UHGV virus genome: UHGV-0716684
Length of the DNA stretch: 44,840 nucleotides
Origin: a virus
Direction: 5' to 3' (one strand)
In this document: piece by piece, positions 25,569-32,598 of the stretch
Numbering within the stretch: the stretch's first letter is position 1
Layout of the letters: each line of letters begins with the position of its first letter
The notes under the pieces: model-generated
What the model saw: the letters and a program-made list of their open reading frames with translations, nothing else
Databases searched by the model: none
What the model was told of the DNA's origin: nothing
Made by a program: the position numbers and the translations under genes

Positions 25569-25981
25569 TGGGCTACTTTGAGGACTTAACAAAAGCGTTT
25601 GATGTGCCGCTGGTAGCCTTCGGAACCGCCAACGGCATCAAAGTCGCGCTTGAAAATATCGGCGCACCGACGTCAACCGATACACCATATCTGGCAAGTT
25701 ACATGTTGCTGGCGGATACGGAACAGGCGGATTTGTTCTTCACGGAACAACGCGCTGGCGTCTATCAGGTAGATATTAACTACGCATCGGTGAAAGGTAG
25801 CGCGCCAATCAATAAAATGGCAGACTTACTTAACACGGCGTTTAAAGCAGGTAAGTCATTTTCACGTAACGACATCTGCGCCGAGGTTCAATCGGTTAGC
25901 CTGGGGCCGCTGATTGTAGAAAACGGATGGGCCAAACGACCATTGTCAATTAACTTTATTGCATTCACCAAGAGGCTGTGA
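25565..25981 (+). CDS. putative tail terminator / tail component
   Basis: 138 aa ORF immediately upstream of major tail protein gene. Confidence 0.45.
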   Translation: MMGYFEDLTKAFDVPLVAFGTANGIKVALENIGAPTSTDTPYLASYMLLADTEQADLFFTEQRAGVYQVDINYASVKGSAPINKMADLLNTAFKAGKSFSRNDICAEVQSVSLGPLIVENGWAKRPLSINFIAFTKRL

Positions 25982-27150
25982 ATATGGCTACAACTCCTTT
26001 TAAGGGCGCGAATACTGCGCAATTCTATGTGGCAGAAACTACCCCGGGCGTAACACCGGCTAACCCGGTATGGTCGCCGTTGCGCAACACGGGCGGCGTT
26101 CCTGCCATTACCCGCGACACGCTGACCTCCAACGAACTTGACGGCAGCCGAGAAACCACATCCATCCGCACCGGTAACAAGCAGGTTAGCGGAGAATACG
26201 CTATTGAGCTTAGCTCTAAAAGTCAGGACGACTGGTTAGCCGGGGCTTTAGGCTCTACGTGGCAATCCGGCGTTTCCCTGTCAGGACTATCGATTACCGT
26301 CGCACCCGCGGGCAAGACGTTCACACGCGCTACCGGCAGTTTTATCACTGACGGAGTTGGGGTAGGCGACCTGATTGCGTTTACCGATTTAACAGGCGAT
26401 AACGCAAAACCATTTATTGTTACTGCAGTAACGGCTACGGTTGTTACTGGTGCGGGCATCCAACACACCCTGACCACCGAGACAAAAACTAGTAAGGCTA
26501 AAACTGGCGACACGTTGGAAACCGGTAACGCGTGTAAGACGTTCTCTATCCTTACCTGGTACAAAGGCCAGTGCGGCGGTACTGACGCGTACACGTTAAC
26601 CAAAGGCGTGGAAGTTTCTGGTTTTACCATCGAACAGGCTGTTAACGCGATGGTAACTGGCAGCTTCCCGTTCATCGGTCGCAGTCAGGAGATTCTCACC
26701 ACGCAGCCGTCTGGTTCTGATTTCTCCTCTGTTACGTTTGGTGACGAGCCATTCTCCTCGGTCGATGTTTCTGTGTTCGACGGTTCTACGCCGTTGCGTT
26801 GCGACAGCCTGACCATCGCCAACGACAACAGCGCGTCGGCGCAGTTCGAACTCGGCAACACTAACGTAGCGTTTGTGGAACGTAGCCGCGCGGCTAACAC
26901 CTTCTCCATCTCCGGCAAGCTGTACGACATGGCTATGATTCAGAAGTTTATCAACGAACAGCAGGTGGAGATTAACTCTATTCTGGCGGGGGTAAACGGG
27001 GCTATGTCTTTTAGTTTGAAACGCGCAGAACTCACGGCGGTTACACCTGAGATTGGTGGGCCTGAGTCAATTACCCAAAGTATAGAAGGGCAGTCCACAG
27101 GCAACCAGTATCAGTCGTCTATCGTAATTCAACGTATTAGTTACGCATAA
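25978..27150 (+). CDS. putative major tail protein
   Basis: 390 aa; last gene of the plus-strand head-tail operon, followed by conserved terminator. Confidence 0.6.
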   Translation: MNMATTPFKGANTAQFYVAETTPGVTPANPVWSPLRNTGGVPAITRDTLTSNELDGSRETTSIRTGNKQVSGEYAIELSSKSQDDWLAGALGSTWQSGVSLSGLSITVAPAGKTFTRATGSFITDGVGVGDLIAFTDLTGDNAKPFIVTAVTATVVTGAGIQHTLTTETKTSKAKTGDTLETGNACKTFSILTWYKGQCGGTDAYTLTKGVEVSGFTIEQAVNAMVTGSFPFIGRSQEILTTQPSGSDFSSVTFGDEPFSSVDVSVFDGSTPLRCDSLTIANDNSASAQFELGNTNVAFVERSRAANTFSISGKLYDMAMIQKFINEQQVEINSILAGVNGAMSFSLKRAELTAVTPEIGGPESITQSIEGQSTGNQYQSSIVIQRISYA

Positions 27151-27154
27151 AACT

Positions 27155-27179
27155 AAGGCCCCGAAAGGGGCCTTTTCTT
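27155..27179. terminator. conserved bidirectional terminator hairpin aaggccccgaaaggggcctt
   Basis: T-rich tract on both strands; convergent gene ends. Confidence 0.65.
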
Positions 27180-27396
27180 ACTCACTTTTGAACGGCATTT
27201 CGTAGAAGTTAGTTAACTGGCCTCGGTCCCTTCGTTCTGTCATTTCTTTAGAGGCCTCTTCCTTACTACTAACGGCATAAATATCAACCCACTCGTCCCA
27301 TTCTTCGTCGTATACTCGGATTACATATATTGTTTTCATAATATTTTCACTCATCAATATTGCTTCGGTATTCCCGTAACTTCTCCAGACTTTCAA
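27178..27396 (-). CDS. hypothetical protein (accessory island)
   Basis: 72 aa ORF on opposite strand within tail module. Confidence 0.45.
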   Translation of the reverse strand: MKVWRSYGNTEAILMSENIMKTIYVIRVYDEEWDEWVDIYAVSSKEEASKEMTERRDRGQLTNFYEMPFKSE

Positions 27397-27577
27397 TTGC
27401 TTCTGCTAAGTCGGTTCCGGTGTCCTTGTGTCCGCGCAAGCCCATGCACAATAACTTCTTTAACGCATGCTGTAGCGCCGGGTCACGGATATCGAAAGCA
27501 CGGAGCACATCATAAACGTCTACTGTCATGGTGCTGCCGTGAGTGTTTGTCATTGTGCGGTTGTATTTTGAAGTCAT
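27347..27577 (-). CDS. hypothetical protein (accessory island)
   Basis: 76 aa ORF. Confidence 0.45.
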   Translation of the reverse strand: MTSKYNRTMTNTHGSTMTVDVYDVLRAFDIRDPALQHALKKLLCMGLRGHKDTGTDLAEAIESLEKLREYRSNIDE

Positions 27578-27586
27578 CTCTACACC

Positions 27587-28087
27587 CTATTTATAACCGT
27601 TGTTGAATGTTGTCAGTCCATGATTTATGTGAAACCTATTAGCCACAGACATGTAAATTCTTTCAGCGAAAGCGTCCTCTATTCTGTCAAATGTTTTACT
27701 AATCTGCTTACCGTTGACAACGGCATAAGCTCTCCACTTAGTTTTTCCTTTCCGCGCCACACCCGTAACTCCAGAGGTATTATCTTTGCGCCTTTTCACG
27801 TTAACCATGTTGTCCCTTCTAGATTTGCATGACAGGTTTTCAATTCTGTCGTCACAGGTATCATGGTTAGTATGGTCTATGACAAATCCTTTTGGAATCT
27901 TACCTGAGAACATCTCATACACCACCCTCGACCTTTTAAACTTACGGTTACCAAACATGACATACCAATAGCCGTTTTTACACAAACTCCCGGCCACATC
28001 ACCTATATTCACATCGTTACGGCGACATGATTTGACTTTCCAGTATAGGACGCCATTTTTGTAGCTAAAAACCTCACTCCAATCCAT
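27587..28087 (-). CDS. HNH homing endonuclease with AP2 DNA-binding domain
   Basis: HNH_3 motif VIDHTNHDTCDDRIENLSCKSRRDN; AP2-like SGVTGVARKGKTKWRAYAVVNGKQISKTFDRIEDA. Confidence 0.75.
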   Translation of the reverse strand: MDWSEVFSYKNGVLYWKVKSCRRNDVNIGDVAGSLCKNGYWYVMFGNRKFKRSRVVYEMFSGKIPKGFVIDHTNHDTCDDRIENLSCKSRRDNMVNVKRRKDNTSGVTGVARKGKTKWRAYAVVNGKQISKTFDRIEDAFAERIYMSVANRFHINHGLTTFNNGYK

Positions 28088-28102
28088 ACTTTCACCTATA
28101 TT

Positions 28103-29257
28103 TTAGTATGTCGATTTTGGGTTTATGTCTCGCAGCATTTCGACAGGTATACTTATGCGGGACACCTCCCCGTAACGTTTGTGGTATGTAATCACATTTG
28201 CGCTTCTACCTGAATAATAGCCGCCCTTACTAGAATACTCATCTTTAGCCGCTAATGTCTGGTGTTGCTCAACAATTAGCAGATTAGTCTCTTTAACCGC
28301 CCTGTGATGGAGGTGCCCCGTATGGACATATGTGAACTTACACCGCCCGTACATCTCCCGGTACTTACCGATTATAGCCTGCTCTACCTTAGCAAAGTTA
28401 GAACAATGCCCGTGATGTGCTGAAATCATACAATCCCCGAACTTGTACGCATAATACGGTGACACCTCCCGGTTAACCTCGACGCGAGGCTCATTTGTGT
28501 ATACCTCGTAGAACATCTCCCGGAGCCACAGAGAAGAACTAAGGTCGTGGTTACCTTCACAGATAAGAAGTTTAACCTTCTTGTGTTTTCGCAAGCACAG
28601 TGAGACAGCCAGCTTGATAACCTTAATGGCCGTGCGTATCATTTTAAACAGGCGACTATCCGCTGAAAGAATATGACCGCTCATAGGGGTCATTGCCTTC
28701 ATGCCGTCGTAGTGCATTTGGTCCCCTAAGAAGTTAATGATACATTCACCACTCTGTGGACTCATACAAACCGCACTGTTGAACCAGTCAACCGCGAGAG
28801 ATTCCGCGATTGTGGTGTCGTAATCATCCCCGCCTTCTTCTTGACACGCCAACATCCCTATGTGATGGTCTGTTATTGTGTAAAGATTTAATAAGTCGTC
28901 ATCTGTCCCATTTTTGGCCAAAGTGACTGGCTTATACTTGGGTAAATCTTTTTTCATCTCGTCCACAACGGCTTTCATTAACTCGACCTGACGTTCCGCA
29001 TCGGTGTCGGTCTTAACCCATTGCAGTTTAGTGTTGCCTAACTCATCAACCAGAGACGATGTACCCTTAATCTTGTAGCCGTCCGGCACAAGGTGGCTAA
29101 CGTCACGCCCGTGGCCTACGCCTTTCTTCGCTAGTTTCGCTTTACGGATACGAATAACGCGGTCTGAGATGCCGTATTTACGAGCAATGTCGATATTCTT
29201 CATCCCAGCGTTCAATTCTTCCTGTAACTGTTCGTCGGTTATTTTCTTCTGGGCCAT
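28103..29257 (-). CDS. HTH-fused calcineurin-like metallophosphoesterase
   Basis: N-terminal HTH (IDIARKYGISDRVI); phosphoesterase motifs TDHH, GDQMHYDG, GNHD, HTGHLHH. Confidence 0.65.
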   Translation of the reverse strand: MAQKKITDEQLQEELNAGMKNIDIARKYGISDRVIRIRKAKLAKKGVGHGRDVSHLVPDGYKIKGTSSLVDELGNTKLQWVKTDTDAERQVELMKAVVDEMKKDLPKYKPVTLAKNGTDDDLLNLYTITDHHIGMLACQEEGGDDYDTTIAESLAVDWFNSAVCMSPQSGECIINFLGDQMHYDGMKAMTPMSGHILSADSRLFKMIRTAIKVIKLAVSLCLRKHKKVKLLICEGNHDLSSSLWLREMFYEVYTNEPRVEVNREVSPYYAYKFGDCMISAHHGHCSNFAKVEQAIIGKYREMYGRCKFTYVHTGHLHHRAVKETNLLIVEQHQTLAAKDEYSSKGGYYSGRSANVITYHKRYGEVSRISIPVEMLRDINPKSTY

Positions 29258-29322
29258 GCCTATTTCCTCGTGTTTAGGATTTGTCCTATTTAACCACAGT
29301 GCATTCCTTTAAATAAAGGCAA

Positions 29323-29649
29323 CTATTTACTTTCTGCGCCTATTGACCATCCGGTTGTAACCATTTGCAAACGAGTGGCTAACAGTAGGCTGCTGAAAGT
29401 GGGGCTGTTAACATCTACAGACTCAACAACAAGGGATGTCATCAATTCAAGACCAAGGCCAGACCCGCCAGCGCGCACGGCAGCATTACATTCGCGAATA
29501 GCAGCGGTTTTAAACGCACTAACGGCAGACGGAGGGGCTGAATCAAGCACCCCGGAAGTTACTAAAGGGGTTTCACTATATACTTGCTCACACTGGGACC
29601 CTACCGCGCAAAAAGAAATAAGACCCATGGCTATGATTAATTTACGCAT
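29323..29649 (-). CDS. small secreted/periplasmic protein
   Basis: 108 aa; N-terminal signal peptide MRKLIIAMGLISFCAVG; first gene downstream of promoter at 29690-29718. Confidence 0.5.
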   Translation of the reverse strand: MRKLIIAMGLISFCAVGSQCEQVYSETPLVTSGVLDSAPPSAVSAFKTAAIRECNAAVRAGGSGLGLELMTSLVVESVDVNSPTFSSLLLATRLQMVTTGWSIGAESK

Positions 29650-29718: not shown

Positions 29719-29826
29719 GTAGTGTGTTAGAATAATTTTGCACCTAGTGTCGCGCACGAAAAGCGGTTGGTTACCGCCTGGTGCATTTCTCTTTAACCAA
29801 CAACCTCTTAACCAAAGGATTAAAGA

Positions 29827-30243
29827 ATGAAACTTTCTGATTTTTATTTCGCGTCCCGCCACGCTGCGGGAACTAAGATGCCTATCCTGCTACCGGACGG
29901 CAGTGACTCAGGGGAGTGGTTGCAGGTGATGGGGCCTGACTGCGACGACTCAATCGCCGCAGCTAAGGATTTTATCTCCGCTTACCGCGACATCCTTGAC
30001 CGCCTGAAACCGCTCGACGCGGAGTGCCGCGAGAAAGGGGACTGGGCGCGCTATAACACGGAATTAAACAGTGAATTGGCTAAACTTAACGATGCACTTG
30101 CTGCCGTTGTTGTTGTAGGGTGGTCCTTCGAGGAGAAGTTCACTAAGAAAGCGTTGGTCAAGCTGTTGAAGGAGTATAAAGGGTTGGGAGGGGCTGTCGC
30201 TCAACACCATGCTGAGAGCCGCAAAGCTTTATCTGTAAAGTAG
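29827..30243 (+). CDS. putative tail assembly chaperone
   Basis: 138 aa ORF directly upstream of tape measure gene; AAGGA RBS. Confidence 0.5.
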   Translation: MKLSDFYFASRHAAGTKMPILLPDGSDSGEWLQVMGPDCDDSIAAAKDFISAYRDILDRLKPLDAECREKGDWARYNTELNSELAKLNDALAAVVVVGWSFEEKFTKKALVKLLKEYKGLGGAVAQHHAESRKALSVK

Positions 30244-30602
30244 AAGCGCTTTACGAATATGCGAGGTATCGCTGGGTTATACGGCAAAGGAGACGTGAGT
30301 TCGACTCCATCGCCGACGGGCACAAGGCCGCTATGGCGGCTATGGGGTTACCTGTACCGAAGGAGCCTGAGGAAACCCCGCCGGAATGCCCGAGCGATAT
30401 GATGAAAATAATGGATAAATACTACGCATTGAAGTTTGTAAGCCGCAATAATGTGCTAATACCAAGGGAAATGCTCCAATATCACCACCTTACAGCGTAC
30501 GCAGAGTTGCATAAACAGCCGTTCTCGTTGCTTGAGGTAGACTTAATAATGGGCCTAGACGCACTGTTCGAAGGCCGTAATGAGGACGATTATAATGGCT
30601 GA
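30216..30602 (+). CDS. possible frameshift extension of tail assembly chaperone (GT-like), or separate small ORF from ATG 30333
   Basis: Frame is open from 30216, overlapping the last 28 nt of the chaperone ORF in the -1 frame, and ends just inside the tape measure gene. Confidence 0.35.
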   Translation, partial: EPQSFICKVEALYEYARYRWVIRQRRREFDSIADGHKAAMAAMGLPVPKEPEETPPECPSDMMKIMDKYYALKFVSRNNVLIPREMLQYHHLTAYAELHKQPFSLLEVDLIMGLDALFEGRNEDDYNG

Positions 30603-32598
30603 TACCGCGAGTTTAATGGTGCGAGTCCAGGCAACTGGAGCGGAGCAAGCAGCAAAGCAGTTAGATAACCTTAGTAGTTCCGCTGGGAAAGCGGATTCCA
30701 GCACAAAGAAACTAACGGACACCACCTCCGCGGCAACCCCGAAGATGAACGCGATGCGGGCGTCAATAGGTAATGCTGGGTATCAGGTACAGGACTTTAT
30801 CGTACAAATCCAAGGGGGGCAGTCCGCCCTCACGGCTTTCACGCAACAAGGTAGTCAGTTAGTGTCCGCATTCAATCCAATTGCGGGCACGGTATTGACT
30901 ATCGCCACCGTAATCGGCGGCGCGCTGTACGCGTCTTTGAGTAACTCAACGGATACCGCTAAACAACTGGAGGAAGCTACTAAGTTCCTTGATGACGCTC
31001 TTAATGAGGCCACACCCGGTGTGTATGACATGAATGACGCACTGGAAAAACTGGACGCTGTCGGGGCAACAACAGCGGAGAAGATGGCATTTCTTAATAA
31101 GGCACTAGAGGCAACCGCCATACAGGCTAACTCCACCGCAGATAAGATTGTTGAAGCTATTGATAAGGTAACAAAAGCCCAATCTCTGTTTCAGAAGTTG
31201 ACCACCAACCTTGCCGCATCACAGATAGCCCAAGGCGGGGACGCTGCCGGGGCCGTGGCTTTCCAGTACGAATCCGCTGCGGAAGCTGCGGGGTTGACCG
31301 CCAAAGAGTTACGCAGTATTGAAGTTGCTCAGAAAGCAATCGCAGCTGGGGTTCCTGGAGCTCGAGAAGGGCTGGTCGCCTACCTGGACGGCATAAACGC
31401 CAAAACGCCAGAAGCGCAGATGGAAATAAATAAACTGCGAAATGAACTTAACTACCTTGGTGTGGAGGAAAAGACCCGCGCAGCCGAGCGAAAAGGGGTA
31501 GAGCAATCTGAGAAGACGTATGAAAAGGATAAGGCGGACAGGGCACAGAAGGAAATAGACAGGCAGAATCGTATCGCTGCCGCAGCTAAGAAACGAGCAG
31601 ATGCTCAAGCCCGCGCCGACGCTCGCGCGCAGGAAAGCGCACAGAAAGCCGCAGACCAGTTTATAGCTCAAATAGACACAAACACCGGAACAGAGTTAGA
31701 ACGGATAGACGCCAAAGAGAAACAGAAACTGGCTAAATTGCAGGAGTTCCACGACAAGCAACTCGTAAGCGACGCTGACTACGAGAAGTCGAAAAGTGAC
31801 ATCATGGCGGAGTTTCAGGCACAACGAGATGCGCTGTATAACAATGCTGATGCATATCTGGAGAAACTACAGGCGCTTGGTGGCACAGAGTTCGAGGAAA
31901 TCCAACGGCAGAATGACGCCAAACTTAAGCAACTGGACGATTTCCTTAAACAGAAACTAATCAGCGAAGAAGAATACGCTAATGCAGTGCGTAACCTGAA
32001 CGAACAGAGCAATATTGCACAAGCCAACGCCACCGCCGACGCATTCGGCAGCATGGCAGCGGATGCTAAATCCGCACTGGGGGAGACGTCCGCTGCGTAC
32101 AAAGCGTTCGCCATAACGCAAGCGACTATTGCCACTTACACGGCTGCTATCGAAGCCTATAAATCAACTGCTGCTATTCCAATTGTCGGCCCGGCACTCG
32201 CTCCGGTTGCCGCGGGTCTGGCTGTCGCGGCGGGGGTGGCGAACATCGCCAAGATTAGCGGCGCGCGTGAGCAAGGCGGGCAAATGAACGCTGGCGGTAG
32301 TTACCTGGTTGGTGAACGCGGCCCTGAGATTATCAAGATGGCGGGTTCTGGCAGGGCGACCAATGCAAGTCAAACACGGCAGCAGTTAAACGGTAATAAT
32401 AGCGGAAATAGTGGCCCATCTAATGTTACTATCGTAAACAACACGAGTTCTCAAATCGGCAACGTATCCACTGAGCAAGATGATGAGGGCCGTTTGCGTA
32501 TCATCATTGAAGAACAGGTTGCCGCGTCTTTGCAGAACAGCAACAGTAAGATTAGCAAGGCTCGCAAGGCCACAAGAAACGCGCCGGGGTTCAAATAA
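30595..32598 (+). CDS. tail tape measure protein
   Basis: About 670 aa, long coiled-coil-like A/E/K/Q-rich sequence with Gly/Ala-rich hydrophobic segment near C-terminus; canonical position. Confidence 0.8.
   Translation: MADTASLMVRVQATGAEQAAKQLDNLSSSAGKADSSTKKLTDTTSAATPKMNAMRASIGNAGYQVQDFIVQIQGGQSALTAFTQQGSQLVSAFNPIAGTVLTIATVIGGALYASLSNSTDTAKQLEEATKFLDDALNEATPGVYDMNDALEKLDAVGATTAEKMAFLNKALEATAIQANSTADKIVEAIDKVTKAQSLFQKLTTNLAASQIAQGGDAAGAVAFQYESAAEAAGLTAKELRSIEVAQKAIAAGVPGAREGLVAYLDGINAKTPEAQMEINKLRNELNYLGVEEKTRAAERKGVEQSEKTYEKDKADRAQKEIDRQNRIAAAAKKRADAQARADARAQESAQKAADQFIAQIDTNTGTELERIDAKEKQKLAKLQEFHDKQLVSDADYEKSKSDIMAEFQAQRDALYNNADAYLEKLQALGGTEFEEIQRQNDAKLKQLDDFLKQKLISEEEYANAVRNLNEQSNIAQANATADAFGSMAADAKSALGETSAAYKAFAITQATIATYTAAIEAYKSTAAIPIVGPALAPVAAGLAVAAGVANIAKISGAREQGGQMNAGGSYLVGERGPEIIKMAGSGRATNASQTRQQLNGNNSGNSGPSNVTIVNNTSSQIGNVSTEQDDEGRLRIIIEEQVAASLQNSNSKISKARKATRNAPGFK

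Follow-up and report, generated by a model that had tools for sequence, protein, structure and literature searches.

How is a reading frame translated when its beginning holds no start codon? The question is raised by a locus in a viral genome of 44,840 nucleotides (UHGV-0716684; the window), in which a frame that we call T overlaps the end of a tail assembly chaperone gene, G, and runs in the -1 frame up to the tape measure gene. From comparison of the window with its relatives, we think it very probable that T is translated as the second part of a fusion protein, GT, made by a -1 shift on the tetramer A_AAG (30237-30240) at the last sense codon of G, and that the adjacent stop codon probably helps.

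The G and T frames and their neighborhood

The arrangement of the locus is that of the lambda G/GT paradigm. Between the tail tube gene and the tape measure gene lies a pair of overlapping ORFs (Table 1). The upstream one belongs to a chaperone family; the downstream one is in a shifted frame and has no conserved start, and its protein sequence is conserved from the overlap on. The tube gene is the upstream landmark of a tube-chaperone-tape measure module of the siphovirus tail type. Gene G scored 27.7 bits against Pfam Phage_TAC_4 (cut-off 21.1) and aligned with positions 1-138 of the 259-position fusion profile phrog_15027, 'tail assembly chaperone' (E=1e-50). The -1 frame is closed by a TGA at 30213-30215 and is open from 30216 to the TGA at 30600-30602. 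An earlier note on this DNA had described a -1 frame at 30216-30602 that overlaps the last 28 nt of the chaperone ORF, placed like G/GT in front of the tape measure gene; every coordinate holds, and the matches of the flanking genes to Phage_TAC_4 and phrog_1538 bear out the placement. The same two-frame arrangement was found in every relative examined.

Joined, G and T would give a predicted 258-aa fusion with the junction ...ALSVK|VEALYEYAR...; the stretch across this junction reads ...SRKALSVKVEALY.... The stop of T overlaps the start of the tape measure gene in ATGGCTGA (30595-30602), a motif present in nearly all relatives, which suggests that translation of the tape measure gene is coupled to that of T or GT.

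Table 1. Positions of the features discussed, from the tail tube gene to the tape measure gene.
Feature	Position	Strand	Details
Tail tube (major tail) gene	25978..27150	+	390 aa; Pfam Phage_tube_2, E=5e-36; phrog_290
Reverse-strand gene block	27178-29649	-	Separates the tube gene from gene G; same in K1H
Gene G, tail assembly chaperone	29827..30243	+	ATG 29827 to TAG 30241-30243; 138 aa; zero frame
G/T overlap	30216..30243	+	28 nt, stop codon counted in; where a shift would have to occur
Proposed slip site A_AAG	30237..30240	+	tRNA-Lys on AAG (30238-30240) would re-pair with AAA (30237-30239)
T segment	30240..30602	+	120 codons plus TGA; -1 frame
UAG stop of G	30241..30243	+	Directly 3' of the slip codon; proposed 'shifty stop' stimulator
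GCG, Ala141 of the fusion	30246..30248	+	3 to 5 nt past the stop; invariant
ATG in T	30333..30335	+	Met170 of the fusion; first ATG/GTG/TTG of the -1 frame; gives 89 aa
Tape measure protein gene	30595..32598	+	Start ATG 30595; phrog_1538, E=3e-106

Two features of the surroundings were observed along the way. The reverse-strand block contains an ORF for an HNH_3 endonuclease (27587-28087, -; Pfam E=6e-16). At this place phages K1H and Esher4 carry other genes, for an ATP-binding protein and a polynucleotide kinase, so the difference looks like a replacement of the homing-endonuclease type. In the leader of G, 25 nt upstream of the chaperone start, positions 29737-29802 (+) gave a full-length match to the Rfam int-alpA RNA (RF02996) at 35.0 bits, against a gathering score of 35.8 (E=3e-5), and sub-threshold int-alpA matches occur at the equivalent place in relatives L021 (1411-1475) and L035 (1414-1477). 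The leader and the start of G are the stretch most conserved at the DNA level relative to more than 100 Kagunavirus records.

The locus belongs to a large phage family. The DNA closest to the region is that of Escherichia phage MirsaeidiM_Esher4 (81% identity), with shorter matches to more than 100 Kagunavirus records. Homologs of T were found in 494 phage records, almost all from Guernseyvirinae of Salmonella and Escherichia, with a few from Serratia, Klebsiella, Hafnia and Shewanella.

Conservation at the end of gene G

The end of G lacks the canonical slippery heptamer of the lambda paradigm. The earlier note had said that the overlap contains no X XXY YYZ site, and we likewise found no in-phase heptamer either within the overlap or in 30200-30243; the site reads U_GUA_AAG. 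Only two in-phase Z_ZZN tetramers lie in the overlap, U_UUA (30228-30231) and A_AAG. In the latter, AAG is the zero-frame codon, cognate re-pairing with AAA is available, and the stop abuts the codon whose tRNA could re-pair (AAG_UAG). The first two bases of this stop also belong to the Val codon GUA (30240-30242) that would be read after a shift. The window has 89 stop-to-stop ORFs with 100 codons or more; among these the chaperone gene is the only one that ends in AAAG plus a stop, and behind it 119 codons are open in the -1 frame. This architecture exceeds chance expectation.

A_AAG directly followed by UAG or UAA is invariant in the family. From 115 loci gathered from IMG/VR we obtained 76 distinct intact sequences, 42-97% identical in protein to the chaperone of the window, and gene G ended in A_AAG_UAR in 76 of 76. 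The codon before AAG varies (GAA, GCA, GUA, AAA, UCA or GGA) and the tetramer alone is kept. The same site is present in five more GenBank phages, one of them from Hafnia; in total, all six GenBank records whose sequence was read have it. In a 77th relative, Salmonella phage SS3e, G is broken upstream and yet GGAAAAGTAG is kept. The SS3e locus (L114 1098-1470; IMG/VR UViG 638275545; NC_006940.2) has a mid-gene frame break that leaves an 85-aa ORF and a tblastn match in two pieces, reflecting either a sequencing error or a real disruption in that record.

Synonymous variation is near saturation over most of the gene and absent at the junction. We examined 109 conserved degenerate codon columns of the fusion alignment, and only five had zero synonymous variation, four of them at the junction (codons 137, 138, 139 and 141). 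Glu137 was GAA in 56 of 56 sequences, with Glu codons outside the junction freely mixed. Lys138 was AAG in 75 of 75, and other conserved Lys codons mix AAA and AAG. Val139, composed of the G of AAG and the UA of the stop, was GUA in 75 of 75, with mixed Val codons elsewhere. Ala141 was GCG in 75 of 75, and conserved Ala codons elsewhere use all four synonyms. The fifth invariant codon, that of the C-terminal Gly, has no synonymous variation because the tape measure start ATGGCTGA overlaps it.

The stop codon and the base after it are also biased. The stop that adjoins A_AAG was TAG in 56 of the 76 sequences, TAA in 20 and TGA in none; among the long ORFs of the window, 24 of 65 end in TGA. The base 3' of the G stop was A or C in 72 of 74 sequences. 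These biases fit weak termination, but neither can be separated from shared ancestry or from coding in the overlapping -1 frame, and we therefore demoted them from evidence of a requirement for weak termination to hints of one.

A shift at this junction has already been deposited for Escherichia phage K1H (Kagunavirus). ORF19A and ORF19B of K1H (ADA82315.1 and ADA82316.1) are homologous to G (57% identity) and T (about 38-44%). Both phages have a 138-aa G, a T in the -1 frame and the junction at the last sense codon, with A_AAG and then the stop; the K1H site is GAA_AAG_UAA and that of the window GUA_AAG_UAG. A K1H fusion built with the junction ...SEK|VKALY... is identical, residue for residue (259 aa), to ADA82316.1 / YP_009168853.1 / UniRef D2XJD7, and the RefSeq record of K1H gives the chaperone as a joined CDS. 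The fusion of the window itself was unannotated in any collection searched, and a PDB sequence search with it gave no meaningful match. We conclude that the window holds an unannotated case of a known event.

The relatives form a series with respect to the slip site. The Shewanella sp. phage 3/49 proteins S349_37/38, a joined CDS in RefSeq, are distant homologs (G 27.6% identical). Like the window, this phage has AAG directly before UAG, followed by a K-V-D-A-L continuation; unlike it, it has a full dnaX-type heptamer, A_AAA_AAG_UAG, and the Ala codon is GCC rather than GCG. The heptamer A_AAA_AAG is also found at the same position in relatives L038 and L039. In two more distant relatives, a Vibrio phage of the Queuovirinae and L115, U_UUU_UUC lies in phase 20-33 nt before the stop. 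The series thus comprises U_UUU_UUC, A_AAA_AAG_UAG and, in the rest including the window, NNA_AAG_UAR. A search of viral contigs gave no further relatives of the L115 chaperone, and a scan of genome contigs for more outgroups gave only a Jerseyvirus-like contig in a Taishania assembly. That 13-kb contig (L121; NZ_JACVEL010000023.1, Taishania pollutisoli) is from a Bacteroidota assembly, has a Jerseyvirus-type G/T junction that matches Salmonella phages, and is probably assembly contamination.

Coding of T and the ways in which it could be translated

The startless 5' part of T is under coding selection. From 30216 up to ATG 30333, the -1 frame of the window contains no ATG, GTG or TTG. Translated from 30216, this frame aligned with positions 137-258 of the 259 in phrog_15027 and matched phrog_4557 from residue 12, well upstream of Met170. 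The window and its nearest relative differ at 13 of the 31 codons before ATG 30333. In the -1 frame, 12 of these differences are synonymous and one changes R to K; read in each other frame, the same differences give 1 synonymous change and 12 replacements. Across 22 lineages, pN/pS from the G stop to ATG 30333, minus the first two post-shift codons, was 0.34 in the -1 frame versus 1.48 and 1.21 in the other two. Third-position entropy over the 31 codons was 1.31 bits, versus 0.67 and 0.63 at the first and second codon positions taken together as the other two. The residues that follow the G stop are conserved among 75 distinct relatives (K-V-x-A-L-Y ... F-D-x-I ... G-H). Judged by these substitution patterns, selection acts on the protein that the 31 codons encode in the -1 frame.

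In the AlphaFold model of T (pLDDT 87), a predicted helix of 33 residues, nearly all of it upstream of Met170, is followed by a linker and a compact domain that corresponds to Pfam Phage_TAC_18 (T residues 52-111). The Pfam family covers the C-terminal 80 residues of T, and the top structural match of the model was the K1H fusion protein.

These findings bear on whether T might be a separate 89-aa protein that starts at ATG 30333, with no frameshift. This ATG has an AAGG 7-10 nt upstream, the compact domain lies wholly downstream of it and would stay intact, and gene callers yield exactly this 89-aa ORF. A start there, however, would leave the 31 upstream codons outside the protein even though their -1 translation is conserved, the lineage of the window included, and would lose the confidently modeled, conserved long helix. 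The ATG is not conserved as a start: most relatives have a Leu codon at the Met170 position, the first start codon of the T frame lies 8 to 323 nt past the G stop depending on lineage, and the ORFs that gene callers report for T range from 64 to 122 aa. The invariance of A_AAG_UAR would also be left unaccounted for. We consider this explanation improbable, although in this phage ATG 30333 may serve as an extra start beside the shift. Of the two options that the earlier note had offered, the results support the frameshift product that arises without a canonical heptamer; the other, a separate start at ATG 30333, is disfavored by the conserved, startless 31 codons and by the Leu that usually replaces the Met.

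Ribosomes might instead re-initiate past the UAG on a near-cognate codon in the -1 frame, which would make T a separate protein of about 117 aa. Codon 142, 5 nt past the stop, is CUG or UUG in 73 of 75 relatives, the GenBank records of SE2, Ent2, Snoke and Bas73 begin T there, and a GGA lies just upstream in many lineages. In the window, however, codon 142 is CUU, and in its nearest relative it is CUC, neither of which is a start codon, and no ATG, GTG or TTG precedes 30333. Re-initiation would also leave unexplained why A always precedes AAG and why AAG is used instead of AAA. We regard it as very unlikely.

There is just as little to be said for a -1 shift at U_UUA (30228-30231) or elsewhere in the 28-nt overlap. 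U_UUA is in phase and within the overlap, and in E. coli reporters it shifted 1.8- to 3.6-fold over background (PMC4066793), but it is not conserved, and the bases upstream of A_AAG vary freely. The -1 frame opens 16 nt before the stop in six lineages and only 7 nt before it (GCA_AAG) in L073, which leaves no room for an alternative slip site. The junction in the deposited K1H fusion is K|V, and slippage on UUA would read ...KAL-YL....

RNA polymerase slippage or a sequencing error is a scarcely credible source of the frame change: there is a short A run at the site, but it has three A residues in the window and three to six in relatives, well below the length for productive transcriptional slippage, and error is excluded because the identical two-frame architecture occurs throughout, in 76 distinct intact sequences and six GenBank records, with a homologous T in about 490 phage records.

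Proposed mechanism and its context

A -1 shift on A_AAG would yield two proteins, G and GT, from one start. The majority of ribosomes would end at UAG 30241 and produce the 138-aa chaperone. A minority would slip one base back on A_AAG, with the peptidyl-tRNA-Lys leaving AAG and re-pairing with AAA, and would then read GUA next and continue to TGA 30600, producing the 258-aa GT. Most likely the slip would take place while AAG occupies the P site and the A site holds the stop, which is decoded slowly (a 'shifty stop'). We favor slippage of the P-site tRNA-Lys in competition with termination because the adjacency of the stop is unbroken, Shewanella phage 3/49 included; slippage of an A-site tRNA would yield the identical protein. 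That ribosomes really shift here, and how efficiently, we infer from the sequences; we found no experimental evidence for the fusion for any family member. By analogy with lambda G/GT, the G part would bind the tape measure protein and the T part would recruit the tail tube protein.

The site has known properties that fit this proposal. A_AAG is the most shift-prone Z_ZZN tetramer for -1 shifting in E. coli; in reporter assays it gave 5.6% with a strong pseudoknot and was barely over background without a stimulator (PMC4066793). Since bare A_AAG is near background and we found no stimulator, its efficiency here would rest on putative effects of the stop codon and the 3' context. A slow stop beside a P-site tRNA that can re-pair is shift-prone (PMC3082878). 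In E. coli, AAA and AAG are both read by a single tRNA-Lys (UUU) (PMC5009743), and the host of this phage is presumed from its nearest relatives. No tRNA genes are encoded in the window.

The proposed shift resembles that of lambda in its setting and differs from it in its signal. In lambda G/GT (Levin, Hendrix & Casjens 1993; Xu, Hendrix & Duda 2004), as here, an overlapping ORF pair precedes the tape measure gene, and a -1 shift near the end of G gives a minor fusion protein with the T domain (PMC5009743). Lambda uses tandem slippage on the heptamer G_GGA_AAG, and the stop is not adjacent, whereas here A_AAG alone is kept and the stop abuts it. The lambda proteins have no detectable sequence similarity to those of the window, and, unlike in lambda, a reverse-strand block parts the tube gene from G.

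Slippage of a single tRNA-Lys from AAG to AAA, as we propose, occurs in IS1222 (G_CGA_AAG) and in B. subtilis cdd (A_CGA_AAG) (PMC5009743, PMC4066793). IS1222 uses its A_AAG site, and the shift in B. subtilis cdd is incidental (PMC5009743). Sites of the A_AAG type give a low level of frameshifting that depends on the 5' flanking codon (PMC5009743, PMC4066793), which is CGA in IS1222 and cdd, GUA in the window and GAA in most of its relatives. Unlike these two sites, those of the family have the stop directly adjacent, and no structure or SD-like element was detected. The 'shifty stops' CCC_UGA (major tail genes of Listeria phages, and pheL) and CCC_UAA (phage SPP1) also combine a P-site tRNA that can re-pair with a slow stop, and phages use such sites to produce a longer protein of the structural module, as the shift in the window would (PMC3082878). 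Those are +1 shifts on a proline codon, and here the shift would be -1 on a lysine codon, with a role for the stop that its conservation suggests.

We found no flanking stimulator of the usual kinds, that is, a structure 5-9 nt downstream or an upstream SD-like element; the tests covered structures other than pseudoknots. No conserved downstream structure emerged when 62 distinct junction sequences (-12 to +118) were folded together with RNAalifold (-0.3 kcal/mol, a 3-bp helix). Two candidate helices were rejected. A long-range helix of GCGCUGU with GCGGCGC about 80 nt downstream, seen in single-sequence folds, had no compensatory change and was no better than shuffled columns, and a second helix, in three lineages (alignment columns 33-41 with 85-93), had no covariation and pairs no better than shuffles. 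There was no conserved SD-like motif upstream of the site in relatives; the GGA found in many lineages, directly before AAAG, is missing from the window. Rfam gave no frameshift element at the junction, the only motif being that in the leader upstream of G. A note in GenBank refers to Anany et al. 2015 for a secondary structure predicted here.

The invariant GCG may be a 3' context element; the protein does not account for its invariance. We offer one tentative and rather doubtful extension of this, in which A_AAG_UAR_NNGCG would be a minimal, structure-free -1 cassette: termination at UAR in competition with slippage of the P-site tRNA-Lys would set the G:GT ratio, and GCG would be a previously undescribed 3' stimulator. 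UAG is read by RF1 only. If this were true, about 490 Guernseyvirinae genomes would share, in A_AAG_UAR_NNGCG, a natural -1 equivalent of the +1 'shifty stop' sites that spans the whole family. Events of this kind and their biological role are well established, and the remaining interest lies in how the tetramer is stimulated and in the role of GCG. For the question of how a bare tetramer reaches a useful level of shifting, the family is a natural series, with the tetramer, a heptamer at the same position and a heptamer elsewhere.

The site also matters for annotation. In most records T appears as a separate hypothetical protein whose start is arbitrary, in many the UUG or CUG 5 nt past the stop, and one genome announcement reports 'no canonical slippery sequence' (PMC6776780). 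A_AAG plus a stop would be a simple rule for annotating the fusion in the about 490 Guernseyvirinae records with a homologous T, a family with many phages of Salmonella and E. coli that are under study for therapy and biocontrol.

Individual lineages differ in how the RNA past the stop folds. Fold z-scores ranged from +1.5 to -4.75 over lineages, with -0.73 for the window. In three lineages the 100 nt past the stop fold far better than shuffles (L016 1918-2017, z=-4.75; L040 1618-1717, z=-2.66; L090 1618-1717, z=-2.65), with a stem of GCCCGNUGG with CCGNCGGGC that is not kept family-wide. These stems may be lineage-specific stimulators.
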